From positions 310,001-374,000 of the forward strand of contig JASTWF010000339.1 of the NCBI GenBank assembly GCA_030390025.1: 64,000 nucleotides of DNA, given 5' to 3'. The notes beneath the pieces were generated by a model. The model was given only the letters and a program-made list of their open reading frames with translations. It searched no databases and was not told the origin of the DNA. Origin of the DNA: Squalus acanthias (lineage: Eukaryota). The translations under genes were made by a program, and so were the position numbers. This document shows positions 7,981 through 62,909 of this stretch, piece by piece. The first letter of the stretch is position 1. Every line of letters begins with the position of its first letter.

Positions 7981-8551
7981 TCAGAATGCTGTTAGGTGAG
8001 GAGTTCCAGGATTTTCACCCAGCGACGATGTAGGAATGGCGATATATGTCCAAGTCAGGATAGTGTGTGACTTGGAGGGAACTGGGAGGTGATGGTGTTC
8101 CCATGCACCTTCTAGGTGGTGGAGGTTGCGTGTTTGGGAGGTGCTGTCAAAGTTCTAGTCGAGTTACAGATGTATAAAGTCGCTCTCCTTCACTCCTCCC
8201 CCTCCCACCTCACTCTCTCTCCTCCCATAGAGGCCAGAGTCTTGTGTAGGCCCGGACCGGGTGGCGGGTTCCCTTCCCTGAAGGACATTAGTGAACCAGT
8301 TGGGTTTTTACGACAATCCGGCAGCTTTCATGGTCACTTTTTTCTGGTGCCGGCCCCGCAAATTCCCAGATTCATTCAGCTCAATTTCACAACCTGCCTT
8401 TGTGTTTTTCTGGGTTCTCGTACCCTCCCTTTTTCCTGTTTTAAATTCATTTTACAGGCTGTTCGAAGGGGAGGATTTGCAGACAGGAAACTCAAACCAA
8501 ACATCACTTCAAGACCTGACAGAGTCACTCAATTCATCAGGACATTGGAGC

Positions 8552-9085
8552 ATGGAAGCAGAAAGCACCATTCAGAGCGGGGAGAAACCGTACACGTGTT
8601 CTGTGTGTGGACGAGGCTTCAGCCGATCCTCTTGCCTGTCGAGACACAAGCGCAGTCACACCGGGGAGAAACCGTGTAAATGTGGGGACTGTGGGAAGCG
8701 ATTCAACTACCCGTGTGAGCTGGAAACTCATCGACGAGTTCACACTGGGGAGAGGCCGTTCACCTGCTCCGAGTGTGGGAAGGGATTCATTGATTCATCC
8801 CACCTCCTGAGACACCAACTTGTTCATACTGATAAGAGACCTTTTAAATGTTCTGACTGTGAGAAGAGATTTAAAAGAAAAACGGATCTGCTGACACACC
8901 AGCGAGTTCACACCGGGGAGAGACCATTCACCTGCACTGAGTGTGGGAAGGGATTCAGTCTGTCACCCGACCTGCTGAGACACCAGCGAGTTCACACCGG
9001 GGAGAGACCATTCACCTGCTCCGTGTGTGGGAAGGGATTCACTCGGTCATCCAACCTGCTGAGACACCAGCGAGTACACAAGTGA
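8552..9085 (+). CDS. C2H2 zinc-finger protein A (6 fingers, no KRAB seen)
   Basis: Six CxxC..HxxxH repeats with TGE(K/R)P linkers; acceptor tttacAG at 8456-8457; first in-frame ATG after the acceptor at 8552 (start inferred); AATAAA 9222-9227. Confidence 0.85.
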
Positions 9086-9692
9086 CTGCAGGGGTTGGAT
9101 TCTGATGTTATTACTGCTACTAATTACATCCCGGACTGAACCATGATCATTCTGACAGCTGGGGTTTGTTTCTGCTGATGTTAATAACTGGGCTGGAGTT
9201 TAATATTCTGGATATATGTCAAATAAATCAGCTTTGCTTTAAACACATTGTTGTGGATTTTTGTCATTCCCACCTGAGTGTTTAGCATCACCTGGCTGGA
9301 GCTCAGAAAGGACAATCTGGGGGGAGGATCGTATGGCGGGAACAGAACTACAGCCTGGACACAGTCCTTCAGGGCCACACTGAGAGGGGCTAACGGCACT
9401 TTGGTCTTTCTCGTCTCTCTTCACTGAAAGGAAAGTTGCCGGGCAGATTAAGAACATAAGAAAAGATCATAAGAATTAGGAGCAGGAGTAGGTCACACGG
9501 CCCCTCGACTCAGGACTGTTTCACACACACATATTAAATCTTCGTGGAATAATTACCAGCCATTTTTAGACTGGAAACTTAACCCTGCCGTTTCACTTTC
9601 AGTCAGGAACAGATCGCAGTTTGACACCAATCTCTGATTTGACAGCATGTTTCCAGCATTCACCGTTGTTCTTCCTGACTCTAAACACAGTT

Positions 9693-17900: not shown

Positions 17901-19345
17901 ATCATAATTATTAACCTCTATTTCCACAGCTAATTCATCTACCTTGTTCCTGATGCTTCTCGCATTAAGGTATAAAACCCTCAGGCTTTTTTTATGCTCA
18001 CATTTTTTATGAATTAGTTTGGCCCTTTGTTTTTTGTTCCTCACCCTTTTACCATTTATTTCACCCCTACTCTCCAACCCCTCTCACCCCAACTCCTCTT
18101 TCACCCCTACTCTCCAACCCCCCTCACCCCAACTCCCCAACCCCCATCACCCCAACTCCTCTTTCCTCCTACTCTCCAACCCCCCTCACCCCAACTCCTC
18201 TTTCCTCCTACTCTCCAACCCCCCTCACCCCAACTCCTCTTTCACCCCTACTCTCCAACCCCCCTCACCCCAACTCCTCTTTCACCCCTACTCTCCAACC
18301 CCCCTCACCCCAACTCCTCTTTCACCCCTACTCTCCAACCCCCCTCACCCCAACTCCTCTTTCACCCCTACTCTCCAACCCCCCTCACCCCAACTCCTCT
18401 TTCACCCCTACTCTCCAACCCCCTTCACCCCAACTCCTCTTTCACCCCTACTCTCCAACCCCCCTCACCCCAACTCCTCTTTCACCCCTACTCTCCAACC
18501 CCCCTCACCCCAACTCCTCTTTCACCCCTACTCTCCAACCCCCTCACCCCAACTCCTCTTTCACCCCTACTCTCCAACCCCCTTCACCCCAACTCCTCTT
18601 TCACCCCTACTCTCCAACCCCCCCTCACCCCAACTCCTCTTTCACCCCTACTCTCCAACCCCCCTCACCCCAACTCCTCTTTCACTCCTACTCTCCAACC
18701 CCCCTCACCCCAACTCCTCTTTCACCCCGAATCTCCAACTCCCCTCACCCCAACTCCTCTTTCACCCCTACTCTCCAACCCCCCTCACCCCAACTCCTTT
18801 TTCACCCCTACTCTCCAAACACCCCTCACCCCAACTCCTCTTTCACCCCTACTCTCCAACCCCCCTCGCCCCAACTCCTCTTTCACCCCTACTCTCCAAC
18901 CCCCCTCGCCCCAACTCCTCTTTCACCCCTACTCTCCAACCCCCCTCGCCCCAACTCCTCTTTCACCCCTACTCTCCAACCCCCCTCGCCCCAACTCCTC
19001 TTTCACCCCTACTCTCCAACCCCCCTCGCCCCAACTCCTCTTTCACCCCTACTCTCCAACCCCCCTCGCCCCAACTCCTCTTTCACCCCTACTCTCCAAC
19101 CCCCCTCGCCCCAACTCCTCTTTCACCCCTACTCTCCAACCCCCCTCGCCCCAACTCCTCTTTCACCCCTACTCTCCAACCCCCCTCACCCCAACTCCTC
19201 TTTCACCCCTACTCTCCAACCCCCTCACCCCAACTCCTCTTTCACCCCTACTCTCCAACCCCCCTCACCCCAACTCCTCTTTCACCCCTACTCTCCAACC
19301 CCCCTCACCCCAACTCCTCTTTCACCCCTACTCTCCAACCCCCTT
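14926..19345. repeat. 40-bp C-rich minisatellite in two blocks (14926-15079 and 18060-19345, ~36 units in total), split by a CR1 insertion
   Basis: Unit tcacccctactctccaacccccctcaccccaactcctctt. Confidence 0.95.
15080..18059 (-). mobile_element. Young CR1 LINE, 5'-truncated just upstream of an intact APE+RT ORF2
   Basis: Uninterrupted 966-aa frame 15177-18077 with LNARS, GDFN, SDH, YRPVSLTS, QGSVLGP, FADD; (ctatgtat)n tail; no native Met before the APE domain. Confidence 0.95.
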
Positions 19346-19629
19346 TCATCTTCCATTGATATTTGGAACCTGTCAGAATTTGAAAGATATTTACAAATGA
19401 TTTGATTGTTTCTTAGAGTTGGGATCTTTCTTCATTCTGTTGCCTTCTGATTGAAATGAAACCGACGGTTTTTACCAGTCGGGATTTGAAAGGTATTTGT
19501 AACAGATTGTAGATGTTCTTCGAGTTGGGATCTTTCTCTATTCCATCCACTCGAGGAGTTAGATAACAGACTTTCTCCTGTGAATATAGAGCTGGAGTAT
19601 TGGGTCGTGATGTGTTCACTTGTTCATCT

Positions 19630-20196: not shown

Positions 20197-20558
20197 TGAT
20201 TTCATAACAGCAAAAGTTACACTGGGACAAATGTTCAGTCATTCTCTATTACACGCACTCTGGAAGGTCTGGGGAGCTGGGACTTGAGAGTAAGAGAAGG
20301 TCTGAGAACTGAAATTATCTAGACTGAAAAAGGAGAAAAGGCCCAGAAATGGAGCAGTCGGTGACAGGACACCAATTAGTCTCCTCTTATCTCAGAGACA
20401 TCAAATACTCGATTCACTGAGTGTTTGACATTTATCCCGAATATTAAACTCCAGCCCAGTTATAGGGGTTACTAACATCAGCAGAAACAAACCCCAACTG
20501 TCAGAATGAACATGGTTCAGTCCGGGATGTGATTAACATCAGAATCAAACTCCTGCTG

Positions 20559-21540
20559 TCACTTGTGAACTCGCTGGTGTGTCAGCAGGTGGGATGACTG
20601 AGTGAATCCCTTCCCACACTCAGAGCAGGTGAATGGCCTCTCCCCGGTGTGAACTCGCTGGTGTCTCAGCAGGTCGGATGACAGAGTGAATCCCTTCCCA
20701 CACACAGAGCAGGTAAACGGCCTCTCCCCAGTGTGAACTCGCTGGTGTCTCAGCAGGTCGGATGACTGAGTGAATCCCTTCCCACACACGGAGCAGGTGA
20801 ACGGTCTCTCTCCAGCGTGAACTCGCTGGTATCTCAGCAGGTTGAATGTGTGAGTGAAGCTCTTTCCACACACGGAGCAGGTGAACGGCCTCTCCCCACT
20901 GTGAGTGCATTGGTGTGTCAGCAGATCCCTTGTGCTTTTAAAGCTCTTTTCACAATCAGAACATTTAAATGGTCTCTTATCAGTGTGAACTCGCTGGTGT
21001 GTCAGCAGGTGGGATGACTGAGTGAATCCCTTCCCACACTCAGAGCAGGTGAACGGCCTTTCCCCACTGTGATTGCGATGATGAATTTCCAGCTCAGATG
21101 GGTTACCGAATCCCTTCCCACAGTCCCCACATTTCCCCGGTTTCTCCGTGGTGCAGGTGTCCTTGTGTCTCTCCAGGTTGGACGATCAGTTGAAGCCTCG
21201 TCCACACACAGAACACGTGTACGGTTTCTCCCCGCTGTGAATGGTGCGATGTTTTTTCAGGCTGTGTAACTGTTTGAAATCTTTTCCCACAGACAGAACA
21301 GACAAGCTCTTTCCACAGTCAGTGCACTGGAACACTCTCACTCGGGTGTGTGTCTCGGTGCTTTTCCAGTCATACTGATGTTTGAAATCTTTTCCCACAG
21401 ACAGAACAGACAAACATTTCTCCTTCCACATTCAACGGCCGATGATATTCAGATCCTGAGTAATCGAGTGACTCTGTCAGATCTTGATGTGATGTTTGGT
21501 TCGAGTTTCCCGTGTGTAAATCCTCCCGTTCTAATACCCT
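20559..21540 (-). pseudogene. C2H2 zinc-finger gene B; 7-finger frame 21149 to 20559 starts with ACG instead of ATG, upstream fingers disrupted
   Basis: In-frame TGA at 21188-21186, then acc-ACG-gag-aaa-ccg (21149-21147) and an open frame to TGA at 20559; one finger has H->Y; acceptor ttttacAG ~21540. Confidence 0.75.
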
Positions 21541-32879: not shown

Positions 32880-33111
32880 TTTAAGATAACGCTGTTCTTG
32901 CTCCAGGGACCTTACGGCCAAGCTACATTGGGCCTCCTGCTGAGAGTAGCGCCCGAAAACCAGCCTTACACGGTAAGTTTAGAGCTGTGCTAATTTAAAT
33001 TGGCCCGTAGCACCAAAATACCTAAGCTGCCTGCGCTATTAATTCGGGCGGCCGTTAACTGCGGGCTTTGGTGGCACCGGCAGGTTTTCGGCGCACTGGA
33101 ATTTCTAGGCC
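32880..33111. mobile_element. Harbinger-like terminal fragment
   Basis: CpG-rich; ends AATTTCTAGGCC, similar to the MITE TIR; partner end not found. Confidence 0.35.
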
Positions 33112-33157
33112 ACTGAACATTATCCGCGCCCCGCAACTGCCCGCCAATTCAGCGAGA

Positions 33158-36100
33158 TCTGTAAATGAGGTGAAATGGAGACTGGTCAGGGAGCGTCTGT
33201 AAATGAGGTGAAATGAAGACTGGTCAGGGAGCGTCTGTAAATGAGGTGAAATGGAGACTGGTCAGGCTGCGTCTATAAATGAGGAGAAAAGGAGACTAGT
33301 CAGGGAGCGTCTGTAAATGGAGGAAAAATGGAGACTAGTCAGGGAGTGTCTGTAAATGAGGTGAAATGGAGATTGGTCAGGGAGTGTCTGTAAATGAGGT
33401 GAAATGGAGACTGGACAGGGAGCGTCTGTAAATGGAGGATAATGGAGACTGTTCAGGGAGCGTCTGTAAATGGAGGAGAAGTGGAGACTGGTCAGGGAAA
33501 GTCTGTAAATGAGGTGAAATGGAGATTGGTCAGGGAGCATCTGTAAATGAGTTGAAATGGAGATTGCTCAGGGAGAGTCTGTAAATGAGGAGAAAAGGAG
33601 ATTGGTCAGGGAGCGTCTATAAATGAGGAGAAAAGGCTATTGCTCAGGGAGCGTCTGTAAATGGCGGAGAAAAGGAGACTGGTCAGGGAGCGTCTGCAAA
33701 TGAGGTGAAATGGAGACTGGTCAGGCTGCGTCTATAAATGAGGAGAAAAGGAGACTAGTCAGGGAGCGTCTGTAAATGGAGGAGAAATGGAGACTGGTCA
33801 GGGAGCATCTGTAAGTGGAGGAGGAATGGTGACTGGTCAGGGAGCATCTGAAAATGAGGAGAAATGGAGACTGGTCTGGGAGCGTCTGTAAATGGAGGAG
33901 AAATGGTGACTGGTCAGGAAGCATCTGTAAATGAGGTGAAATGGAGACTGGTCAGGGAGCGTCTGTAAATGGAGGAGAGATGGAGATTGGTCAGGGAGAG
34001 TCTGTAAATGAGGTGAAATGGAGATTGGTCAGGGAGAGTCTGTAAATGAGGTGAAATGGAGACTGGTCAGGGAGCGTCTGTAAATGAGGTGAAATGGTGA
34101 GTGGTCAGGGAGCGTCTGTAAATGGAGGAGGAATGGTGACTGGTCAGGGAGCATCTGTAAATGAGGAGAAATGGAGACTGGTCAGGGAGCATCTGTAAAT
34201 GAGGTGAAATGGAGACTGCTCAGGGAGCGTCTGTAAATGAGGTGAAATGGAGATTGGTCAGGGAGCGTCTGTAAATGAGGTGAAATGGAGACTGGTCAGG
34301 GAGCGTCTGTAAATGGAGGAGAAATGGAGACTGCTCAGGGAGCGTCTGTAAATGGAGGAGAAATGGAGACTGGTCAGAGAGTGTCTGTAAATGGAGGAGA
34401 AATGGAGACTGGCCAGGGAGCATCTGTAAATGCGGTGAAATAGAGATTGGTCAGGGAGCATCTAAATGAGGTGAAAAGGAGATTGGTCAGGGAACGTCTG
34501 TAAATGAGGAGAAAAGGAGACTGGTCAGGGAACGTCTGCAAATGAGGTGAAATGGAGACTGGTCAGGGAGCGACTGTAAATGAGGAGAAATCGAGACTGG
34601 TCAGGGAGCGTCTGTAAATGGAGGAGAAATCGAGACTGGTCAGGGAGCGTCTGTAAATGGAGGAGAAATGGTGACTGGTCAGGGAGCGTCTGTAAATGAG
34701 GTGAAATGGAGACTGGTCAGGAGCGTCTGTAAATGGATGAGAAATGAAGACTGGTCAGGGAGCGTCTGTAAATGAAGAGAAATGGAACTGGTGTCGAAGT
34801 TTGACTTCCGATTAAAGACTCTTGTAAACAATATCGTCAAAGAAGGCTTTTTATTATATTTTACTTGCAAGGAGACTGCAACCATAGCCCAATTAGCTAT
34901 GATGACAGACTGCCGAATCACAGAAAATGGAGTATTCTTATACAGTATAATATCACATGACATGTTGTTTAAGGTAAGCTAAGTTAACAATTAGAAAAAA
35001 CACATAAGAAATGCCTTACAATGAGACTAGCTAATCTCTATAGAATGGAGTCTATCTATTTTACTTCTCTCACCAAGGCCAAGGCGCCTGGTTTGTTTAC
35101 TTTACTAGCCCTTGGTTATCTCAATATTAAGCCTGTTTTCTTTTGTGAAGGCAGTCTTTTGCTGACAGCATAGTCTAAGACTTTAAAGTTATTTTCAGAA
35201 AATAACATAACAATGGATTTTTTCCCTTTTCCACACAAGTCAGAGTCGGCCATTTTATTAGTTTAAATTCAAGGACACCATTTTGTCCGAGTCAAAAACT
35301 GCACTTCCACACTGGTCAGGGAGCATCTGTAAATGGAGGAGAAATGGTGACTGGTCAGGGAGCGTCTGTAAATGACAAGAAATTAAGACTGGTCAGGGAA
35401 CGTCTGTAAATGAGGAGTAATGCAGACTGGTCAGGGAGCGTCTGTAAATGCAGGAGAAATCGTGACTGGTCAGGGAGCGTCTGTAAATAGAGGAGAAATG
35501 GAGACTGGTCAGGGAGCGTCTGTAAATGAGGAGAAATGGAGACTGGTCAGGGAGCGTCTGTAAATGGAGGAGGAATACAGACTGGTCAGGGAGCGTCTGT
35601 AAATGGAGGAGGAAAGGAGACTGGTCATGGAGAGTCCATAAATGGAGGAGAAATGGAGACTGGTCAGGGAGCGTCTTTAAATGGAGGAGGAATGGAGACT
35701 GGTCAGGGAGCGTCTGTAAGTGGAGGAGGAATGGTGACTGGTCAGGGAGCGTCTGGAAATGAGGTGAAATGGAGACTGGTCAGGGAGCGTCTGTAAATGG
35801 AGGAGAAATGGAGACTGGTCAGAGAGTGTCTGTAAATGGAGGAGAAATGGAGACTGGCCAGGGAGCATCTGTAAATGCGGTGAAATAGAGATTGGTCAGG
35901 GAGCGTCTAAATGAGGTGAAATGGAGATTGCTCAGGGAGAGTCTGTAAATGAGGAGAAAAGGGAGAGTCTGTAAATGAGGAGAAAAGGAGACTGGTCAGG
36001 GAACGTCTGCAAATGTGGTGAAATGGTGAGTGGTCAGGGAGCGTCTATAAATGAGGAGAAAAGGAGACTGGTCAGGGAGCATCTGTAAATGAGTGAAATG

Positions 36101-36818
36101 GAGACTGGTCAGGGAGCATCTGTAAATGGAGGAGAAATGGTGACTGGTCAGGGAGCGTCTGTAAATGGAGGAGAAATGGAGACTGCTCAGGGAGCGTCTG
36201 TAAATGGAGGAGAAATGGAGACTGCTCAGGGAGCGTCTGTAAATGGAGGAGAAATGGAGACTGGTCAGAGAGTGTCTGTAAATGGAGGAGAAATGGAGAC
36301 TGGCCAGGGAGCATCTGTAAATGCGGTGAAATAGAGATTGGTCAGGGAGCGTCTAAATGAGGTGAAATGGAGATTGCTCAGGGAGAGTCTGTAAATGAGG
36401 AGAAAAGGAGACTGGTCAGGGAACGTCTGCAAATGAGGTGAAATGGTGAGTGGTCAGGGAGCATCTATAAATGAGGAGAAAAGGAGACTGGTCAGGGAGC
36501 ATCTGTAAATGGAGGAGGAATTATGACTGGTCAGGGAGCGTCTGTAAATGAGGAGTAATGGAGACTGGTCAGGGAGCATCTGTAAATGGAGGAGAAATGG
36601 TGACTGGTCAGGGAGCGTCTGTAAATGACAAGAAATGAAGACTGGTCAGGGAACGTCTGTAAAGGAGGAGAAATGGAGACTGGTCAGGGAGCATCTGTAA
36701 ATGGAGGAGGAATAGAGACTGGTCAGGGAGCATCTGTAAATGGAGGAGGAAAGGAGACTGGTCAGGGAGCGCCTTTAAATGGAGGAGGAATGGAGACTGG
36801 TCAGGGAGGTTCTGTAAA
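33158..36818. repeat. 38/39-bp purine-rich satellite array (~80 units), split by a solo LTR
   Basis: Unit ctgtaaatg(g)agg(t/a)gaaatggagactggtcagggagcgt. Confidence 0.97.
34792..35311 (-). mobile_element. Solo LTR, 520 bp
   Basis: Termini TGTCGAAGT...ACTTCCACA, 4-bp TSD CTGG (34788-34791, 35312-35315), minus-strand AATAAA ~34852. Confidence 0.8.
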
Positions 36819-37084
36819 GAATCATCCTTACCTAATTAACACACAGGCTTAAAGTCAAAATAAGGACAATATAAAGACAATGCATTGTTATATTAGCACC
36901 TTCAGCTGATCACCTCAAGTCAGTTTGCAAAACACGGTTGCTACTATGATTAACCCTTTGTTTGAAGAGACACAACTCCTCCTGCCTCCCCTGGACCATG
37001 ACCCCACTACTGAACACCACACCATCAATTCTCAGGCCGTCACTGAACTTACCTCTTCTACAGGAGAACCCAACGATTGTAGAA

Positions 37085-37650: not shown

Positions 37651-40600
37651 TGACGTAATAAAGACTCACTACGCACTTGAACATAAAGCAAGGCTTTAAT
37701 CAACTTGTAACAAAACATGGAGGTCTAGTTAGCAGTCACTAGCTTCCTGTTTCCAGATTGTCTCTCCCCAAGGTGGGCCCATGCCTGAGTATTTATACTC
37801 CCTGGACGGCGCCCCAGCTGGCCGCCCAGTAGTACTTCCTGAGTTGTTACTTGCGATTTATGACATTCTTCCTCCCTAAAAGGTTTGGAAGTCCAGTCTT
37901 CCTTTAACGGACTAGGCGGACCAGAAATAGCCGCAGACGTTTAGCTCTCTGCTTGTGACTGGAAGGCACGTCTCCCCGGACCGTGTCCTGGTCCCTGGGT
38001 CGCTTGGCCCGTACCGGTAAGTCAGTAGAGTCCGCGTCATCTTGATCATCCTGTGGAGGACTGGGAATATCATGACTCCGGGTGCGGGTCCCCACAGGTG
38101 CTGAGCTGGCCTCATCCCGGGTCGTGGCTGGAGATTGTCCGGCGTCCTGGTTTCGGGTGGCCATCCTACTGGGAGCGTCCAGCTCCCTGAGTTGATCCGG
38201 TAGCGTTGCCGGCAGATCCCCCGATGTCCCAGGCGGGGCGTCATTTTCATAGGGGTGCGGAGTGTTGATATCATTGTCGGGGAATCCTTCATCATTCGGG
38301 CCCGTGTGACCGGTTGGGCAGGGAGCCAGATCTCGGAGCGAGACGGTGGTCTCCCGGCCATCAGGATACCGTACGTGCGCATACGTGGGGTTTACCTCCG
38401 TTAACTCCACCTCGTCAACGAGAGGGTCGTTTTTGGCAGACCGGACGAACCTCCGGAGTAGCACCGGGCCTGGAGCCACCAACCATGACGGTAGAGACGT
38501 CCCATGTGTAGAGCGACGCCGGAATTTGAAGAATCGCTCATGAGGCGTGACATTAGTAGATGTGGAGAGAAGAGACCTGATAGAGTGTAACGCGTCGGGG
38601 AGCACCGTTTCCCACTGCTGGTCCGGCAGGTTGCGTGACCTTAGTGCCAGACGGACAGCGTTCCAGATGATGGCATTGTATCGTTCAACCTGTCCGTTAC
38701 CGATTGGGTGATATGGTGTCGTCCTACTTGAGGCGATTCCCCGTTGGGAGAGATAACTTTTAAGTTCACTCGACATAAAGGAGGGACCCCGATCAGTGTG
38801 GATAAAATTGGCCGTCCCGCAAAGGGAAAAGACCTGATCGAGGCATTTAATTACCGTAGAGGTAAGCATTAGGGCAGGGGAAGGCGAAGGGAAAGCGTGA
38901 ATACTCGTCCACCATCGTAAGTAGGTAGGTGTTCCTTGTCGACGAAGGCAATGGCCCTTTAAAGTCTATGCTGAGCCTCTGCATAGGCTGCATTGCATGT
39001 GTGAGTAAGCCATCTGATGGGCGAAAGAATTGTGGTTTCAATTCTGCACAAATCCTACAGGAGGAGCATGTTTTCTTTACGTCCTCGGTTGAAAATGGTA
39101 GATTTTTGGAGCGCACAAAGTGCAACATGCGGGTCACACCAGGATGGCATAAGTCCATATGCAAATCCGCCAGAGTCGACGTTGACATTGAGGAGCAAAA
39201 TGCCCGTGTGAAGGTATCTGGGGCCACGTTCTGTTTGCCGGGTCGGTAACAGATAGTATATCCAAAGGCAGCCAGCTCCATCCTCCAGAGTTGAATTTTA
39301 TTATTTTTGATTTTCGTGCGCCTCCGGTTATCCAACATGAAGGCCACAGAGCGCTGGTCAGTTATAAGCGTAAAATGACGCTGAGCAAGAAAATGACCCC
39401 ATTGGCGTACAGCCTCGATGATGGCCGTAGCCTCCTTCTCGACGGGGGGGGTAATGGAGCTCGCTACCCTGCAAGGTTCTGGATAGGAATGCCACGGGTC
39501 GGCCACCTTGATTCAAGGTAGCGGAGATCGCCACCTCCGATGCATCGCATTCGACCACAAAAGGAAGATTTTCGTCAATGGAGCGAAGCGTGGCTTTCTC
39601 CAGCTGTCGTTTGAGGAGGTTGAAGGCAGAAATAGCCGTAGCTTCCAATGGAAAAGACTTCGCATGGAGCAGGGGCTGTATTTTATCGGAGAAGTGTGGT
39701 ATCCATTTTGCGTAATAAGCAAACATGCCAAGTGCCCGACGAAGAGAGCCGAGGTTCGTCGGGGGAGGGAGCTCCTGAAGTGGACGAAGTCGCTCTGGGT
39801 CCGGTTTAATAACACCGTTGCCCACCCAGTAGCCAAGAATGTTCACCGATGGCACCGACTTCACCGATTTGGATTCGTTTAACGTTAAGTGGCGACGGCG
39901 GAGTACGTCAAAAAATCTCTGAAGATTGGCGTCATGCTCCTTTTGATCATGGCCGGCAATAGTGATATTGTCTAAATACAGAAAGGTATCCGTCAAGTTC
40001 TCTTGCCGGACTAGGCCATCCATGGCCCGTTGGAAGACGGCCACCCCATTGGTGACCCCAAATGGAAGGCAGCGAAACTGGAAAAGCCGACCATTGGCCT
40101 CAAAGGCCGTATACTTCTTGTCGGAGTCTTGCAGTGGCACCTGATGGTACACGCTTTTTAAATCGAAGGTCGAGAATACCTTGTATTTGGCAAGGTTGTT
40201 GACCATGTCATCTATGCGTGGCAGCGGGTAGGCATCCAGATCGGTATATAGATTAATAGTCTGCGAATAATCGATACACAGACGTTTTTTATGTTGTTTT
40301 AAGGGATTCCTCACGATGACGACCTGAGCCCGCCAGGGAGATGAACATGGCTCGATAATACCGTCGACTAAAAGGCGAGAGATTTCCGCCTCAATAAACG
40401 CTCGATCATCTTGGCTAAAGCGCCGCGATTTGGTGGCTATGGGTTTACAGCGGGGGGGAAGATTGGCAAACAGGGAGGGTTCACCGAGTAAGGCCGCCGA
40501 GAGTGCACAAAACGGCACCTTAGAAATGGTAAGCCTTGACCCTCCAAACTCAAAAGTGATCTTCTTGTGCTGCTTCTGGAAGTCCTGTCCCAGAAGCACA

Positions 40601-42152
40601 TCGCTGCATAAGTTTGCGAGTACTCCGAGCCGGGTGGAGAGATACGTGCGGCCGTTGAGGATGAGGTTGACCAGACAGAAGCCAGAAGAATTGTTGGTCA
40701 GAGTCGTCAGAGCCATTGCTATCTCCCTGTCCGAGGGATAAATGTGCAGTTTTAACCTGTTGACAGCCCGCTTACTAATGAAGCTGTCAGAGCTGCAGGA
40801 GTCGATTAGCGCGCTTAGAGTGTGCCCATTTACTGAAACCTTCGTGGCTGCATGGGACAAACTTTGGGGAAAAACAGCCGTGATGGGAGGAGGGGCAATT
40901 TTCCCTTCGGCAACTGTAGCCTTAACAGTAGTTCTTGGGGGAGGAGCAGCTCCATAGATAGCAGCTGTGAAGCTAACAGGAGCTCTCGACCGGTATACTT
41001 TAGAGGAGCGGCCTTTCTTGTTAGCAAAGGCCCGTGACTGGCATACCTTGGAAAAGTGTCCTTTCTTGCTGCAATGATTGCAGGTCACATTACGAGCCGG
41101 GCAAAATTTTCTGTGATGGCACGCCCCTCCACAAAAGAAACACTTTCTTCCTGATTGCCAGGATGCTGCTAGGGCGGGGTCGTCATCAGCGAAGGCCTCT
41201 AGGGTAGGGTCGTCGTCTGTTAGAGTAGAGTCAACATCAGTGGGGGCATCCGCCCGAGACCTACCGAAAGACTCATTAAAGGAGATAGCCGCCGCCCGTG
41301 CACGTGGTGGGAGATAAGTGTCTGCATTTTTCTTGGCCAAGTCCAAGGAACACGCCTGGTCATAAGCAGCCCGTAAATTGAGGGTTTTATTTTCCAGCAG
41401 GCGCTGACGTATAAAAGGGGACGCGATTCCATTGATAAAGGAATCGCGGATTAGTTCCTCTTGATACTGTTCAGCTGAAACTGCTTTAAGGTTACAATCC
41501 TTGCTGAGCCTGCGAAGTTTCTGGAGAAATTCATCGAGTGATTCCCCAGGCTGCTGCCGAGTTGTGGCCAGTAGGTGTCGAGCAAAGATTTCATTTGGGG
41601 ACTTGACATATAGCTGCTGTAAGATTTCGATAGCAGTGTCATAGTCTATACAGTCCTCAATATAATCATACACATGAGGAGACACGTAGTTGATAAGCAT
41701 TCATAACTTATTAGGGACATCCGCCCCACATTCTTCAAGAAAGTTGCTAAAGGTACGAAACCAATGCTTCCATACCTTTGCTGCCGCAGGTGCATTCGGG
41801 TCCAGGTCGAGACGAGCGGGTCTAAGGAGTTTTTCCATGATGGATCAGTTTCTTGCCCAAGTTCCCTTCTGTGGTTCGAGTTGCAGCTGGTTGTTCCGAA
41901 TCACCCAAAGCGTGGAGACGATATCAAGTTGATTAAATTGACGTAATAAAGACTCACTACGCACTTGAACATAAAGCAAGGCTTTAATCAACTTGTAACA
42001 AAACATGGAGGTCTAGTTAGCAGTCACTAGCTTCCTGTTTCCAGATTGTCTCTCCCCAAGGTGGGCCCATGCCTGAGTATTTATACTCCCTGGACGGCGC
42101 CCCAGCTGGCCGCCCAGTAGTACTTCCTGAGTTGTTACTTGCGATTATGACA
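37651..42152 (-). mobile_element. Full-length Ty3/Gypsy (Mag-like) LTR retrotransposon, copy 1
   Basis: LTRs 37651-37865 and 41939-42152 (differ by one indel), TG..CA, 5-bp TSD CTCCT, PPT; gag with two CCHC knuckles, protease, RT, RNase H, integrase; two frameshifts. Confidence 0.97.
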
Positions 42153-42273: not shown

Positions 42274-42888
42274 ATGGAAGGAGAATGCAGCGATCGCAGC
42301 GCGGACAAACTGCACACATGGTCCATGTGTGGACTCAGATTCAGCCAATTGCCTGACCTGGTGAGACACGTGCACCGTCACACCGGGGAGAAAGGCGGGG
42401 ATGGCGGGAAGGGATTCAGTTCCCCATCTGTGTTGGAAGAACATCAGCGCAGTCACACCGGTGTCAGTCCGTTCACCTGCTCCGTGTGTGGGAAGAGATT
42501 CACTCGGTCATCCAACCTGCTATCACACCAGCGAGTTCACACTGGAGAAAGGCCGTTCACCTGCTCCATGTGTGGGAAGGGATTCACGCAGTCGTCCAAC
42601 CTGCTGACACACCAGCGAGTTCATACTGGGGAGAGACCATTCACCTGCTCCGTGTGTGGGAAAGGATTCATTCGGTCATCCAACCTGCTGACACACCAGC
42701 AAGTTCACACTAGGGAGAGGCCGTTCACCTGCTCCGTGTGTGGTAAGGGATTCATTGATTCATCCCACCTGCTGACACACCAGCGAGTTCACACTGGGGA
42801 GAGGCCGTTCACCTGCTCCATGTGTGGGAAGGGATTCACTCAGTCATCCCACCTGCGGACGCACCAACAAGTTCACCCTGCTCCATAG
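42274..42888 (+). CDS. C2H2 zinc-finger protein C (5 intact + 2 degenerate fingers)
   Basis: Open frame 42184-42888, ATG at 42274 (start inferred), acceptor AG 42163-42164; upstream intron sequence 37400-37650 is homologous to that of ZNF B. Confidence 0.8.
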
Positions 42889-43516
42889 GGCAGGGCCCTG
42901 CCGGCAGCTGGGGTAATGTGAACGGGGAAAATGTTTTATAAATTTTGTACTGCTGTTTAATCTTTCAGCCTGTTGAGCTGATGGTTCCTGGGGAACACAA
43001 GCCTAGTCTGTGCAACCTGTCCTCATAATTTAACCCTTTTAGCCCCGGTATGATTCTGGTGAATCTGCGCCAATATATCCTTCCTGAGGTGCGGTGCCCG
43101 GAACGGAACAGGAGAGCAGACTGACTGCGGCCTGCTAGACTGTTCAAGGTCAAAGCTCACCTAATCTGGTGACAGTAACAAAAGTGTGAGACGTAACAAA
43201 GGAAGAGATAAGGCGGCTGTTGAACTATTGGAAAAACAAGTCTACATATTGTATTCTGCCCAGCAACAGACTCAGGAAGCTAAGGCTACAAAACATCCAG
43301 ACTTACAGTGATTGTCTGGAGAACCATGAGCAACAATGGAGCAAGAAGAACGAGAACATCCTCAGCTCTCCCACAACAGGGCCCTGATCACCCTCAGCTC
43401 TGAGTGGAGCTCCCCAGAATAAGGTTGAATGACTTTGTTACCTGGTAAAAGTGTCAGGTCTGAATGTCAATAAAAATTATTCAAAACAATTCTAGAGTCT
43501 CGCGTGATTCTTCCAT

Positions 43517-45287: not shown

Positions 45288-45850
45288 GAAGACAACGGGC
45301 TGCGGCCGCTCAATCCGCTCCGCTCGGTGCCGGGAGGGCGCTGGGACGCTCCGGTTTGTATTTTATTTTTATTTATCTCCCCGCCCGCGCTTCTCTCCGC
45401 TATATATGAACAAAAACCTTACAAAACTCACTTTCCGCCGGTGATCCGGACGCTCAGACGGGGTGTGTGCTGAGCATGCGCGGTGCGGGCCGACGCCAGT
45501 GGAGCAGGAGGGGGGCGGGGCCATGGGGCGCATGCGCGGTGTCAGCCACAACTCAGCGCGGCGGCCGGAGCGCTTTCTGGAGCGCGGGGACTTGTGGGGA
45601 TTGCAGCCGCCATTACTGTTGATTCTTTCAACTAACCTGTGCAGCAGCTGGGGCCTGAAAATCAGCTACACTGCCCCTGGGCTGGGAAAGAGCGACATGG
45701 GACAACATTCTCCCTCTTACCCCTTTCTACACTCCTTTTACAGGGTTTTAGAAATGGAGCATTTACAGACAGGAAGCTCAAACCAAACATCACCTTAAGA
45801 TCAGACAGTCGTTCGATTCATCAGGACCTGAATATCATCGGCCTTTGCAC

Positions 45851-47230
45851 ATGGAAGGAGAGAGCAGTGATCGCAGCGTGGACAAACTACACACGTCTTC
45901 CGTGTGTGGACTCGGATTCAGCCGATCGCCTGACCTGACGAGACACGTGCACCGTCACACCGGGGAGAAACCGGGCAACGGTGGGGACGGCAGGATGGGA
46001 TTCAGTTCCCCACCTGCATCGGAAGTTCATCAGCGCAGTCACACCAGGGACAGTCCGTTCACCTGCTCCGTGTGTGGAAAGGGATTTGTTTATCCATCTC
46101 ACCTGCTGAGACACCAGCTTGTTCACACTGACGAGACACCGTTTAACTGTTCTTACTGTCGCAAGAGCTTTAAAAGCTCCGGGGCTCTGAAGGAACACCA
46201 GCTTATTTATACCGATGAGAGGCCATTTACATGTTCTGACTGTGGGAAGAGCTTTAAAAGCTCTCAGAATCTGACGACACACCAGCGAGTTCACACTGGG
46301 GAGAGGCCGTTCACCTGCTCCGTGTGTGGGAAGGGATTCACTCGGTCCTCGAGACTGCTGGAACACCAACAATTTCACACTGGGGAGAGGCCGTTCTCCT
46401 GCTCTGTGTGTGGGAAGGGATTCACTTGGTCATCCAACCTGCTGAGACACCAGCGAGTTCACACTGGGGAGCGACTGTTCACCTGCACCGTGTGTGGGAA
46501 GGGATTCGCTCAGTCCTCGACTCTGCTCGAACACCAGCGAGTTCACACTGGGGAGAGGCCGTTCACCTGCTCCGTGTGTGGGATGGGATTCACCTGCTCA
46601 TCCAACCTGCTGAAACACCAACGAGTTCACACAAATGAAAGGCCTTTCACCTACTCCGTGTGTGGGAAGGGATTCACTCAGTCATCCAACCTGTTGGCAC
46701 ACGGGCAAGTTCACACTGGGGAGAGACCGTTTAAATGTTCTGACTGTGGGAAGAGCTTTAAAAGCTCTGGAAATTTGACGACACACCAGCTTGCTCACAC
46801 CGGGGAGAGGCCATTCTCCTGCTCTGTGTCTGGGAAGGGATTCACTTGGTCATCCAACCTGCTGAAACACCAGCGACTTCACACTGGGGAGAGGCCTTTC
46901 TCCTGCTCTGTGTGTGGGAAGCGATTTACTCAGTCCTCGACTCTGGTTGAACACCAGCGAGTTCACACTGGGGAGAGGCCGTTCACCTGCTCTGTGTGTG
47001 GGAAGGGATTCACTCAGTCATCCAACCTGTTGCCATACCCACGAGTTCACACTGGGGAGAGGCCGCTTAAATGTTCTGACTGTAGGAAAAGTTTTAAAAG
47101 CTCCCAGGAGCTGAAGAGACTCGAGCTGGAGCGAGCAGGAGAGAAGCCGTTCACCTGCTCCATGTGTGGGAAGGGATTCACTCAGTCATCCCAGTTGCTG
47201 AGACACCAGCGAGTTCACAATGTCCATTAG
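45851..47230 (+). CDS. C2H2 zinc-finger protein D (16 finger repeats, 9 with intact C2H2 ligands)
   Basis: 459-aa open frame from ATG 45851; acceptor ttttacAG 45742-45743. Confidence 0.85.
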   Translation: MEGESSDRSVDKLHTSSVCGLGFSRSPDLTRHVHRHTGEKPGNGGDGRMGFSSPPASEVHQRSHTRDSPFTCSVCGKGFVYPSHLLRHQLVHTDETPFNCSYCRKSFKSSGALKEHQLIYTDERPFTCSDCGKSFKSSQNLTTHQRVHTGERPFTCSVCGKGFTRSSRLLEHQQFHTGERPFSCSVCGKGFTWSSNLLRHQRVHTGERLFTCTVCGKGFAQSSTLLEHQRVHTGERPFTCSVCGMGFTCSSNLLKHQRVHTNERPFTYSVCGKGFTQSSNLLAHGQVHTGERPFKCSDCGKSFKSSGNLTTHQLAHTGERPFSCSVSGKGFTWSSNLLKHQRLHTGERPFSCSVCGKRFTQSSTLVEHQRVHTGERPFTCSVCGKGFTQSSNLLPYPRVHTGERPLKCSDCRKSFKSSQELKRLELERAGEKPFTCSMCGKGFTQSSQLLRHQRVHNVH

Positions 47231-47707
47231 CACAGGGCTCTGCAGACAGCTGGGGTGACATGAACGTGGAATGGATGAATGTTTTATAAATTCTTGTACT
47301 GATGTTTAATCTTTAAGACTGTTGAGCTGATGATTCCCATTGTTTGACTGTTCATGGTGTTCCATAGAATGTACAGCACAGAAACAGGCCATTCGGCCCA
47401 ACTGGTCCATGTCAGTGTTTATGCCCCACACCCACCCTACTTCAATTAACCCGATCAACATCTCCTCCCATTCCTTTCTCCCTCATGTGGCTTCCCCATA
47501 AATGCATCTGTGCTGTTCCTCTCAACTACTCCTTGTGGTAGCGAGTTCCCCATTCTACCACTCGCTGGGTAAAGACATTTCTCCTGAATTCCCTGCTGGA
47601 TTTATTTATGCTCCCATAAATATGATGAGATTCTGTTAAGCTGACCAGTATGTTGTTGTACTTTGTCTTTTTCTGATGAATGAAACATTACTGAGCCCCT
47701 GTACCCG

Positions 47708-50700
47708 TGTTATGGGATGAAGTGCCAGACAAGTAAAGGCACAACGTCTGGGTGTGAATCTAATAATAACCTCACGGACCGTATAGGTGTGATAACCAGA
47801 CGGGCTTGTGGTTATGGTCTGGTCACAGATGGACTAAATTCCCCGAATTAGCAGGAGTTCAGGAGGCGGTCAACAGACGGGTCCAAACAATCCCATTTCC
47901 TGAGCGGTAACCAAGCTTGTGTATAAGAACAGGCCACTTAAGCCGTTGTCAGTTGGAACAGACTCGAGAAGATCGCGCGTGAATCCACGGTACTTCTATT
48001 CTCCAGATTGAGGGAATTATCACCCGATCTGTGTTATGCAGCGCTGTTAATAAAGCCTGGAGAGACAATTTGTGTTCTTGTGAGCTTGATTATCTGGTAT
48101 TCGAAACCCTGGGACTCCCGATTGTCATAAATCGCAAGTAACAACTCAGGAAGTACTACTGGGTGGCCAGCTGGGGTGCCGTCCAGGGAGTATAAATACT
48201 CAGGCATGGGCCCACCTTGGGCAGAGACAATCTGGAAACAGGAAGCTAGTGACTGCTAACTAGACCTCCATGTTTTGTTACAAGTTGATTAAAGCCTTGC
48301 TTTATGTTCAAGTGTGTAGTGAGTCTTTATTACGTCAATTTAATCAACTTGGTATCGTCTCCACGCTTTGGGTGATTCGGAACAACCAGCTGCAACTCGA
48401 ACCACAGAAGGGAACTTGGGCAAGAAACTGATCCATTATGGAAAAACTCCTTAGACCCGCTCGTCTCGACCTGGACCCGAATGCACCTGCGGCAGCAAAG
48501 GTATGGAAGCATTGGTTTCGTACCTTTAGCAACTTTCTTGAAGAATGTGGGGCGGATGTCCCTAATAAGTTACGAATGCTTATCAACTACGTGTCTCCTC
48601 ATGTGTATGATTATATTGAGGACTGTATAGACTATGACACTGCTATCGAAATCTTACAGCAGCTATATGTCAAGTCCCCAAATGAAATCTTTGCTCGACA
48701 CCTACTGGCCACAACTCGGCAGCAGCCTGGGGAATCACTCGATGAATTTCTCCAGAAACTTCGCAGGCTCAGCAACCTTAAAGCAGTTTCAGCTGAACAG
48801 TATCAAGAGGAACTAATCCGCGATTCCTTTATCAATGGAATCGCGTCCCCTTTTATACGTCAGCGCCTGCTGGAAAATAAAACCCTCAATTTACGGGCTG
48901 CTTATGACCAGGCGTGTTCCTTGGACTTGGCCAAGAAAAATGCAGACACTTATCTCCCACCACGTGCACGGGCGGCGGCTATCTCCTTTAATGAGTCTTT
49001 CGGTAGGTCTCGGGCGGATGCCCCCACTGATGTTGACTCTACTCTAACAGACGACGACCCTACCCTAGAGGCCTTCGCTGATGACGACCCCGCCCTAGCA
49101 GCATCCTGGCAATCAGGAAGAAAGTGTTTCTTTTGTGGAGGGGCGTGCCATCACAGAAAATTTTGCCCGGCTCGTAATGTGACCTGCAATCATTGCAGCA
49201 AGAAAGGACACTTTTCCAAGGTATGCCAGTCACGGGCCTTTGCTAACAAGAAAGGCCGCTCCTCTAAAGTATACCGGTCGAGAGCTCCTGTTAGCTTCAC
49301 AGCTGCTATCTATGGAGCTGCTCCTCCCCCAAGAACTACTGTTAAGGCTACAGTTGCCGAAGGGAAAATTGCCCCTCCTCCCATCACGGGTGTTTTTCCC
49401 CAAAGTTTGTCCCATGCAGCCACGAAGGTTTCAGTAAATGGGCACACTCTAAGCGCGCTAATCGACTCCTGCAGCTCTGACAGCTTCATTAGTAAGCGGG
49501 CTGTCAACAGGTTAAAACTGCACATTTATCCCTCGGACAGGGAGATAGCAATGGCTCTGACGACACTGACCAACAATTCTTCTGGCTTCTGTCTGGTCAA
49601 CCTCATCCTCAACGGCCGCACGTATCTCTCCACCCGGCTCGGAGTACTCGCAAACTTATGCAGCGATGTGCTTCTGGGACAGGACTTCCAGAAGCAGCAC
49701 AAGAAGATCACTTTTGAGTTTGGAGGGTCAAGGCCGGAGCTTACCATTTCTAAGGTGCCGTTTTGTGCACTCTCGGCGGCCTTACTCGGTGAACCCTCCC
49801 TGTTTGCCAATCTTCCCCCCCGCTGTAAACCCATAGCCACCAAATCGCGGCGCTTTAGCCAAGATGATCGAGCGTTTATTGAGGCGGAAATCTCTCGCCT
49901 TTTAGTCGACGGTATTATCGAGCCATGTTCATCTCCCTGGCGGGCTCAGGTCGTCATCGTGAGGAATCCCTTAAAACAACATAAAAAACGTCTGTGTATC
50001 GATTATTCGCAGACTATTAATCTATATACCGATCTGGATGCCTACCCGCTGCCACGCATAGATGACATGGTCAACAACCTTGCCAAATACAAGGTATTCT
50101 CGACCTTCGATTTAAAAAGCGCGTACCATCAGGTGCCACTGCAAGACTCCGACAAGAAGTATACGGCCTTTGAGGCCAATGGTCGGCTTTTCCAGTTTCG
50201 CCGCCTTCCATTTGGGGTCACCAATGGGGTGGCCGTCTTCCAACGGGCCATGGATGGCCTAGTCCGGCAAGAGAACTTGACGGATACCTTTCCGTATTTA
50301 GACAATATCACTATTGCCGGCCATGATCAAAAGGAGCATGACGCCAATCTTCAGAGATTTTTTGACGTACTCCGCCGTCGCCACTTAACGTTAAACGAAT
50401 CCAAATCGGTGAAGTCGGTGCCATCGGTGAACATTCTTGGCTACTGGGTGGGCAACGGTGTTATTAAACCGGACCCAGAGCGACTTCGTCCACTTCAGGA
50501 GCTCCCTCCCCCGACGAACCTCGGCTCTCTTCGTCGGGCACTTGGCATGTTTGCTTATTACGCAAAATGGATACCACACTTCTCCGATAAAATACAGCCC
50601 CTGCTCCATGCGAAGTCTTTTCCATTGGAAGCTACGGCTATTTCTGCCTTCAACCTCCTCAAACGACAGCTGGAGAAAGCCACGCTTCGCTCCATTGACG

Positions 50701-52629
50701 AAAATCTTCCTTTTGTGGTCGAATGCGATGCATCGGAGGTGGCGATCTCCGCTACCTTGAATCAAGGTGGCCGACCCGTGGCATTCCTATCCAGAACCTT
50801 GCAGGGTAGCGAGCTCCATTACCCCCCCCCGTCGAGAAGGAGGCTACGGCCATCATCGAGGCTGTACGCCAATGGGGTCATTTTCTTGCTCGGCGTCATT
50901 TTACGCTTATAACTGACCAGCGCTCTGTGGCCTTCATGTTGGATAACCGGAGGCGCACGAAAATCAAAAATAATAAAATTCAACTCTGGAGGATGGAGCT
51001 GGCTGCCTTTGGATATACTATCTGTTACCGACCCGGCAAACAGAACGTGGCCCCAGATACCTTCACACGGGCATTTTGCTCCTCAATGTCAACGTCGACT
51101 CTGGCGGATTTGCATATGGACTTATGCCATCCTGGTGTGACCCGCATGTTGCACTTTGTGCGCTCCAAAAATCTACCATTTTCAACCGAGGACGTAAAGA
51201 AAACATGCTCCTCCTGTAGGATTTGTGCAGAATTGAAACCACAATTCTTTCGCCCATCAGATGGCTTACTCACACATGCAATGCAGCCTATGCAGAGGCT
51301 CAGCATAGACTTTAAAGGGCCATTGCCTTCGTCGACAAGGAACACCTACCTACTTACGATGGTGGACGAGTATTCACGCTTTCCCTTCGCCTTCCCCTGC
51401 CCTAATGCTTACCTCTACGGTAATTAAATGCCTCGATCAGGTCTTTTCCCTTTGCGGGACGGACAATTTTATCCACACTGATCGGGGTCCCTCCTTTATG
51501 TCGAGTGAACTTAAAAGTTATCTCTCCCAACGGGGAATCGCCTCAAGTAGGACGACACCATATCACCCAATCGGTAACGGACAGGTTGAACGATACAATG
51601 CCATCATCTGGAACGCTGTCCGTCTGGCACTAAGGTCACGCAACCTGCCGGACCAGCAGTGGGAAACGGTGCTCCCCGACGCATTACACTCTATCAGGTC
51701 TCTTCTCTCCACATCTACTAATGTCACGCCTCATGAGCGATTCTTCAAATTCCGGCGTCGCTCTACACATGGGACGTCTCTACCGTCATGGTTGGTGGCT
51801 CCAGGCCCGGTACTACTCCGGAGGTTCGTCCGGTCGGCCAAAAACGACCCTCTCGTTGACGAGGTGGAGTTAACGGAGGTAAACCCCACGTATGCGCACG
51901 TACGGTATCCTGATGGCCGGGAGACCACCGTCTCGCTCCGAGATCTGGCTCCCTGCCCAACCGGTCACACGGGCCCGAATGATGAAGGATCCCCCGACAA
52001 TGATATCAACACTCCGCACCCCTATGAAAATGACGCCCCGCCTGGGACATCGGGGGATCTGCCGGCAACGCTACCGGATCAACTCAGGGAGCTGGACGCT
52101 CCCAGTAGGATGGCCACCCGAAACCAGGACGCCGGACAATCTCCAGCCACGACCCGGGATGAGGCCAGCTCAGCACCTGTGGGGACCCGCACCCGGAGTC
52201 ATGATATTCCCAGTCCTCCACAGGATGATCAAGATGACGCGGACTCTACTGACTTACCGGTACGGGCCAAGCGACCCAGGGACCAGGAGACGTGCCTTCC
52301 AGTCACAAGCAGAGAGCTAAACGTCTGCGGCTATTTCTGGTCCGCCTAGTCCGTTAAAGGAAGACTGGCCTTCCAAACCTTTTAGGGAGGAAGAATGTCA
52401 TAAATCGCAAGTAACAACTCAGGAAGTACTACTGGGTGGCCAGCTGGGGCGCCGTCCAGGGAGTATAAATACTCAGGCATGGGCCCACCTTGGGCAGAGA
52501 CAATCTGGAAACAGGAAGCTAGTGACTGCTAACTAGACCGCCATGTTTTGTTACAAGTTGATTAAAGCCTTGCTTTATGTTCAAGTGCGTAGTGAGTCTT
52601 TATTACGTCACCGATCATTAGAGTCAACC
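47708..52629 (+). mobile_element. Solo LTR (~430 bp: 47708-48122 + 52616-52629) interrupted by Gypsy copy 2
   Basis: Starts TGTTATGG, TATA-like gtataag ~47921, AATAAA 48049-48054; homolog at 19630-19975 shows the continuity across the insertion. Confidence 0.6.
48123..52610 (+). mobile_element. Full-length Ty3/Gypsy (Mag-like) LTR retrotransposon, copy 2
   Basis: LTRs 48123-48337 and 52396-52610 (3 substitutions seen), 5-bp TSD CCGAT, PPT 52381-52395, gag-pol 48438-52349 with two frameshifts. Confidence 0.97.
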
Positions 52630-61647: not shown

Positions 61648-62437
61648 ATGGAAGGGGAGACCAGTAATCGCAGCGCGGACAAACCGCACACGTGTTCCGT
61701 GTGTGGGAAGGGATTTGTTTATCCATTACACCTGCAGACACACCAGCTTGTTCACACTGATGAGAGACCCTTTACATGTTCTGACTGGGAAGAGCTTTAA
61801 ATGCTCTGGCGATCTGGAAGGACACCAGAGAGCTCATACTGATGAGAGGCCATTTACATGTTCTGACTGTGGGAAGAGCTTTAAAAGCTCTGGGGTTCTG
61901 ACGACACACCAGCGAGCTCACACTGGGGAGAGGCCCTTCACCTGCTCCATGTGTGGGAAGGGATTTGTTTATCCATCTCACCTGGGGAGACACCAGCGAG
62001 TTCACACTGACGAGAGACCATTTAAATGTTCTGACTTTGGGAAGAGCTTCAAAAGCTCCCAGGAGCTGAAGCAACACCAGCACCTCCACACTGGGGAGAG
62101 GCCGTTCACCTGCTCTGTGTGTGGGAAGGGATTTGCTCGGTCTTCCAACCTGCTGAGACACCAGCGTTTAAACAGTGGAGAGAGACCGTTCACCTGCTCG
62201 GTGTGTGGGAAGGAATTCTCTCTGTTTTCGAATCTGCAGACACACCGGCGAGTTCACACAGATGAGAGACCATTTACATGTTCTGACTGTGGGAAGAGCT
62301 TTAAAAGGTCCGGGGATCTGAAGGGGCACCAGCGAGTTCACACTGGGGAGAGGCCTTTCACCTGCTCCGTGTGTGGGAAGGGATTCACTCAATCATCCCA
62401 GCTGCTGAAACACCAGCGAGTGCACACTGTCCATTAG
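61648..62437 (+). pseudogene. C2H2 zinc-finger gene E, paralog of D, with a 2-nt deletion at ~61786
   Basis: gactGGGaag in place of gactGTGGGaag shifts the frame to TAA at 61800; downstream fingers are open to 62437. Confidence 0.75.
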
Positions 62438-62909
62438 CGCAGGGCCCTGCAGACAGCTGGGGTGACATGAACGTGGAATGGATGAATGTTTTAGAAATTC
62501 TTGTGCTGCTGTTTAATCTTTAAGACTGTTGTGCTGATGATTCCCTTCATTTGCCTGTTCATGGTGTTACATAGAATGTACAGCACAGAAACAGGCCATT
62601 CGGTCCAACTGGTCCATGCCAGTGTTTATGCTCCACACCCACCCTACTTCAACTAACCCTATCAACATATCCTCCTATTCCTTTCTCATGTGATTTCCCC
62701 ATAAATGCAGCTATGCTATTCACTTCAATCTTCCTTGTGGTAGTGAGTTCCACATTCCCACCACTCTCTGGGTAAAGAAATTTCTCCTGAATTCCCTCCT
62801 GGATTTGTTGGTGACTATTTTATATTTATGGCCCCATAAATATGATGAGATTCTGTTAAGCTGACCAGTATGTTGTTGTACTTTGTCTTTTTCTGATAAA
62901 TGAAACATT

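Follow-up and report, generated by a model that had tools for sequence, protein, structure and literature searches.

Self-primed reverse transcription has been shown for the fission-yeast element Tf1 and is regarded as characteristic of the Tf1/sushi group. Tf1 and Tf2 of S. pombe, Tj1 of S. japonicus and Tf1/sushi elements in general are described as having a primer-binding site (PBS) after the 5' LTR that complements a stretch of their own LTR, and within the group a tRNA site is absent and stem-loops lie between primer and PBS (PMC10085805; PMC4600332). The reverse transcriptase (RT) of Tf1 is described as putting nontemplated bases on cDNA 3' ends, with the copied PBS kept in about half of the cDNA (PMC11042837), and in Tf2 alternative transcription starts are described as deciding whether the primer is present (PMC5341516). 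Self-priming has also been predicted, from complementarity alone, for the plant Tcn1 chromoviruses and the TAR copia elements Houba and Osr-1 (PMC6317226); the available part of that paper names no animal non-chromovirus Gypsy element as self-priming. Animal Gypsy elements of the Mag lineage, the A, B and C clades, CsRN1, Cigr-1 and MolGy are described as having short LTRs and a single ORF and as being widespread in aquatic animals (PMC3601003; PMC6238403). Our literature search, whose scope excluded most subscription papers and the Repbase reports, returned no account of self-priming in animal non-chromovirus Gypsy elements, or of the YLDN motif described below.

The window analysed here is a stretch of 64,000 nucleotides from Squalus acanthias, and all coordinates are positions within it. 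A 4.5-kb Ty3/Gypsy LTR retrotransposon without a chromodomain occupies 48123-52610 on the plus strand, as do all of its features given below. It is flanked by the target-site duplication CCGAT (48118-48122, repeated at 52611-52615), and its 215-bp 5' LTR (48123-48337, TG...CA) differs from the 3' LTR (52396-52610) at three of 214 compared positions. Between them lie gag-pol (48438-52349), with two CCHC knuckles, protease, RT, RNase H and an integrase in which Pfam found no chromodomain, and a polypurine tract, read from the sequence, that adjoins the 3' LTR (52384-52395). In this copy gag-pol is split across three frames, with the breaks in RNase H and integrase. The Pfam domain order (PR-RT-RH-IN) is that of Gypsy elements, LTRs and a target-site duplication are present, there is no env, and the closest solved RT structure is that of Ty3. 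A second copy of the family, 98.8% identical, lies on the minus strand at 37651-42152 with the target-site duplication AGGAG.

The 5' LTR terminates with CA at 48337, and a one-nucleotide spacer (48338) therefore separates it from the putative PBS, TTTAATCAACTTG (48339-48351), which over all 13 nt is the exact reverse complement of CAAGTTGATTAAA within the LTR (48281-48293). The latter, the LTR arm, is the predicted self-primer, and its 3' part is the ATTAAA poly(A) signal (48288-48293). These features had been picked out by the first-pass annotation, and we find them as described, including the same pair in the other copy (arm 41983-41995, PBS 41925-41937, minus strand) and the absence of a TGG-starting PBS of the tRNA-primed kind next to the LTR. 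The window copy does read TGGTATC at 48350, yet the second G is the variable base 48352, where most copies have A (79 among the first 100 young junctions listed, by hand count); the TGG hinges on a letter missing from most of the family, so no tRNA site is hidden there. The 3' LTR adjoins host DNA directly, and the hairpin can thus form only at the 5' LTR, again as had been proposed. Both minimum-free-energy and centroid folds predict a further stem-loop in U5, between arm and PBS, that contains the LTR end (48313-48337); a similar hairpin is found in the families L240 and L042 and is not present in every family. When the LTR was shuffled 5000 times with dinucleotides preserved, the best complement of the post-LTR stretch reached 11 nt once and 13 nt never, whereas the leader as a whole folded no better than shuffles (z = 0.57). 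The signal is a placed 13-bp helix and not general leader stability.

The family is young and large, as judged from its approximately 1900 LTRs in the genome (1970 pattern matches, versus 46 for a control pattern) and 645 exact LTR-end/PBS junctions, and many of the 150 genome places listed contain an open frame of ~1315 codons. Two CCHC knuckles are present in 54 of 60 long homologues, and YxDN replaces YxDD in 96 of 120 homologues (P0001-P0120), whose named hosts are crustaceans, cnidarians, molluscs, a tunicate, a nematode, a fluke and cartilaginous fishes. The window element itself has YLDN, not YxDD, at the RT active site (~50340-50360), yet its family amplified recently; the second catalytic aspartate has been lost clade-wide, a change that might conceivably be tied to self-priming. 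The Pfam chromodomain (E<=0.1) was found in none of nine proteins (eight full-length homologues and the integrase end from the window), and none of the 16 chromodomain loci of the genome matched the element's pol queries. Of 32 candidates for an RT tree, one gave only a short match and another no hit; the 30 rows that remained split at 100/100 into 21 clade members and nine other Gypsy rows of this genome. The tree sets the YLDN clade apart from those nine alone, which have ~30% RT identity to it and among which the TGG-type elements carry YLDD. A motif search of the readable supplement files of PMC6238403 and PMC8556966, some files being unreadable, returned neither YLDN nor YMDN, and no relative was found among viral contigs.

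To see how the helix behaves across relatives, we turned to 80 metagenome loci, of which 31 matched the gag start and 28 were examined, the remaining three having too little upstream DNA. The first-pass annotation had named loss of complementarity in related active families as evidence against self-priming; a pair of 12-15 bp lies immediately before gag in 18 of the 28 loci, where shuffles average ~7, and the other 10 have no pair. Eight of these 10 were printed and, by eye, look truncated or lack a clear gag start; none of the eight shows a TGG site by eye. The pair is the best inverted repeat in 17 of the 18 loci, and in L089 a 12-bp pair stands beside a longer unrelated repeat. At that locus a perfect inverted repeat of 21 bp spans the start of the LTR (~570-730) and is apparently an inverted LTR fragment adjoining the element.

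Twelve families, comprising metagenome families and L240, a second family of this genome, were then compared; the set was selected for presence of the pair, which bears on both the pairing and the covariation counts. In all 12, at RT identities down to 47%, the PBS pairs with its own arm over 11-15 nt and the hairpin loop measures 24-53 nt, and in 11 a CA plus one base directly precedes the paired stretch. Pairing of a PBS with other families' arms averages 4.25 nt and reaches 11 nt in four of 132 cross-pairs. In an alignment of nine families (L051, L062 and L089 omitted), 98% of cells pair, a figure that leans high because rows were chosen for having the pair; seven of the 13 pairs change on both sides, six are invariant, and none of 500 shuffles scored as high. 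The suggested check for covariation of the two 13-mers is therefore positive. Because arm and PBS covary, chance complementarity of AT-rich sequence is refuted and we give it a negligible probability: the AT-rich arm and the ordinary folding energy of the leader would suit it, but shuffles gave no more than 11 nt, and the covariation holds both among the 12 families and within this one (see below). Three TGG-type Gypsy copies of the genome (L298, L299 and L303) show self-pairing of only 4-5 nt. A genome pattern for families of the AATAAA type gave 57 matches versus 12 for its control, and was discarded when none of 30 fetched matches had gag behind it.

The element shares a 32-nt stretch that contains the TATA box (48188-48219 and 52461-52492) with a repeat of greater abundance seen in sequencing contigs. 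That repeat was recovered by neither of two genome patterns, one of which revealed an older subfamily of the element instead, with a mean minor-allele share of 2.7% versus 0.6% in the young family. In this subfamily PBS position 8 is G (35 junctions) and the facing arm position is C (144 LTRs), so that both arms have changed together, from T-A to C-G. The C is kept in at least one LTR by 30 of the 35 elements, whose 5' arms read CG in 21, TG in eight, CA in three and GG in one, with two unread; the T and A cases would fit CpG decay. Among 30 fetched loci, all five 5' LTRs with arm C have the PBS G, and one young copy with arm C facing PBS A is a counter-case. As judged from these alleles, the compensatory change within the family is one inherited event, at a CpG.

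Immediately 3' of the PBS lies a hypervariable base (48352), which we read as the probable footprint of the primer's 5' end. In 32 older copies (three of 35 were excluded as rearranged or not of the subfamily) it is A in 17, G in six, C in five, T in two and deleted in two, while among 1838 other non-CpG internal columns, counted on reference-anchored alignments, none has four bases and one has three. An earlier background count (76 three-base and six four-base columns of 1915) was inflated by misaligned truncated copies and was rejected. On a tree of the 26 best-covered older copies, which is poorly resolved, 48352 needs 11 changes versus 12.3 for shuffled labels (P = 0.14), and seven other informative columns, which helped build that tree, need one to five. 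Across 643 junctions of the young family the base is C in 16 and T in none, and the first 100 include, besides the A copies noted above, 20 G and one C. The 16 C copies fall on five haplotypes, and four of them share a private variant. PBS positions 9, 11 and 12, by comparison, vary in zero, one and zero copies against 645 unchanged. The simplest reading is that the variability at 48352 is the mark expected from an RT running off a primer whose 5' end is 48281; a primer one nucleotide longer would dictate T. The footprint would thereby tie the helix to reverse transcription and set the primer's 5' end, and template switching could also scatter the alleles. As a control we examined 30 loci of TGG-type elements, 28 of which proved to be one family; a single two-base site lay 21 nt inside its leader, and none had all four bases. 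This family is too young to bear on the footprint idea. If the reading holds, in any family that is numerous enough the hypervariable base that follows the PBS would let a primer's end be mapped using genomic copies alone. In one copy of the L240 family, locus L199 (~1480-1560), the 5' LTR starts at the very base where the arm does and is preceded by unrelated DNA, an isolated instance of truncation where the primer is predicted to start.

The PBS is complementary to the element's own LTR, not to the end of a tRNA, and we think it likely that 13 nt of the element's RNA (48281-48293) serve as the primer of its reverse transcription. The RNA would fold back to lay the arm onto the PBS; a cut behind 48293, probably made by the RNase H of the element as happens in Tf1, would create a new 3' end, from which the one-nucleotide spacer and U5 would be copied. 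Between this cut and the poly(A) site lie 15-25 nt that would be used in the first strand transfer, and this use would account for an arm that does not extend past the poly(A) hexamer. Plus-strand synthesis would then copy the primer and run off its 5' end at 48281, and one untemplated base added at run-off would become 48352. Copying of the primer would rewrite the PBS from the LTR arm and so keep the two in step. The self-priming originally proposed for this family gains support, at the level of DNA, from the covariation, the register to the LTR end, the TGG-type controls and the variability at 48352; the pairing is real and selected, and is most likely a self-primer.

Where transcription begins bears directly on this model. 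The TATA box, TATAAATA (48191-48198, assigned from sequence), lies 90 nt upstream of the arm, and the start that it predicts, near 48220, ~60 nt upstream. In contigs from eight sequencing runs we saw neither transcript ends, 5' or 3', nor poly(A) tails. The doubt raised at first pass, that either the start is misplaced by the TATA box or the geometry differs from that of Tf1, stands: a TATA-like box precedes the arm by 70-113 nt in five of the 12 families, by ~30 nt in one, and is absent from six. The position of the TATA box thus points against a primer at the mRNA 5' end, and the 48352 footprint points to a primer that starts at 48281; either transcription has a second start, at 48281, or cuts are made on both sides of the primer. 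A Pol II start on a C, as at 48281, would be atypical. We tentatively propose, as a possibility that is more doubtful than not, that in an animal-wide YxDN Gypsy clade self-priming evolved apart from Tf1, with transcription starting ~60 nt upstream of the primer and with one cut ahead of 48281 and another behind the poly(A) hexamer to release it; the 5' poly(A) signal would then be silenced by the very helix that supplies the primer. The TATA position would fit priming by another copy of the arm (from the 3'-end R, a co-packaged second genome or short LTR transcripts) in RNA begun at the predicted site. At 48222, 31 nt after the start of the TATA box, C is replaced by G in ~98 and by T in three of the ~1900 LTRs, the G sometimes occurring in only one of an element's two LTRs, and this could mark copying of the cap at a start at 48223. 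The variant may instead be a sublineage allele, since five 5' copies that carry it have one common internal haplotype and it was not seen in three or more of 51 older-subfamily LTRs. Moreover, with loops of 24-53 nt in every family the local hairpin should form first, and a long primer without a further cut at 48281 would leave the 48352 footprint unexplained; we regard priming by another arm copy as unlikely.

The arm ends exactly with AWTAAA in 10 of the 12 families, and the helix is possible only at the 5' LTR, as it would be if it served to hide the 5' poly(A) signal or had a structural role such as packaging, with another RNA as the primer. That reading has no need of a one-nucleotide register with respect to the LTR end, or of variability in the base that follows the helix, a site for another primer is absent, and the L062/L079 arm stops 7 nt before AATAAA while that of L051 has no hexamer. 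We consider it quite improbable. The masking of premature polyadenylation suggested at first pass is plausible as a side benefit, but two of the 12 arms (L062 and L051) are free of AWTAAA, so it is not the sole purpose. The comparison with host tRNAs that had been called for did yield a candidate, the 5' fragment of tRNA-Ile(AAT), cut in the D-loop, which the LTR arm would merely resemble. The genome has 34 D-arm-like matches (control, 0), the identity being taken by eye from the AAT anticodon, and a 24-nt 5' piece pairs with the PBS over 11 nt, two of them G-U, at -12.9 kcal/mol versus -14.9 for the self arm; in L240 and L042 it is also close in strength. In all 12 families the self arm is nevertheless the stronger partner, and pairing of the tRNA piece falls to -7 kcal/mol or weaker in seven. 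A copied tRNA primer would be expected to leave its letters in the PBS, yet tRNA-dictated letters occur in none of the junctions, and the PBS change in the older subfamily tracks the LTR, not the tRNA. A search for the 10-nt arm core before a T-loop motif gave 45 places, and no tRNA was called in the 33 scanned. Compared with tRNA-Ile and these 33 places, the PBS does not track the sequence of a host tRNA fragment, and priming by tRNA-Ile(AAT) is largely refuted and, in our estimation, very improbable. The arm with the following GC (48281-48295) resembles the D-loop of tRNA-Ile (L243), which is A-box-like, in the L042 family as well; this could be coincidence or a trace of origin.

Self-priming from the element's own LTR, the reading that we favour, invites comparison with the systems outlined at the start. 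As in Tf1/sushi elements, the PBS lies just after the 5' LTR and is complementary to it, and a tRNA site is absent. Of the three duplexes of the Tf1 'pretzel', the central one and the U5 stem-loop are predicted here, and the one on the 3' side of the PBS is weak, if it exists at all. Unlike Tf1/sushi elements, this one has no chromodomain but two CCHC knuckles, a single ORF and a YxDN RT, its arm and the poly(A) signal overlap, away from the 5' end that the TATA box predicts, and the named hosts of its homologues are crustaceans, cnidarians, molluscs, tunicates, nematodes and cartilaginous fishes. Most likely it works as Tf1 does, but it lacks the chromodomain expected of a Tf1/sushi member. 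For Tcn1 and TAR, too, self-priming was proposed from sequence and outside Tf1, although these are plant lineages of the copia or chromovirus type. With the Mag lineage and other animal non-chromovirus Gypsy elements it has in common short LTRs, a compact single ORF and aquatic-animal hosts. If self-priming is confirmed, a large animal clade without a chromodomain would also self-prime, from a different LTR position, one linked to the poly(A) signal; such elements would be missed by tools that require a tRNA site, and they would presumably lie beyond defences based on tRNA fragments.

Several further observations concern related elements and the surroundings of the insertion. Another young Gypsy family of the genome (L298-L300 and L430-L459) carries a TGG site, LTRs of 224 bp and a frame of 1335 codons; we counted 68 junction matches for it. 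Locus L031, the contig of a relative, is circularly permuted, its only LTR lying between pol and gag, and could be a one-LTR circle, a tandem copy or an assembly collapse. Both Gypsy copies of the window lie within a cluster of C2H2 zinc-finger genes, seen as arrays of an 84-nt repeat at 8500-9200, 20500-21250, 42300-42990, 45850-47250 and 61700-62450. The window also contains long minisatellites with strong strand skew at 18000-19430 (units of 39-40 nt) and 33090-36860 (units of 38-39 nt).
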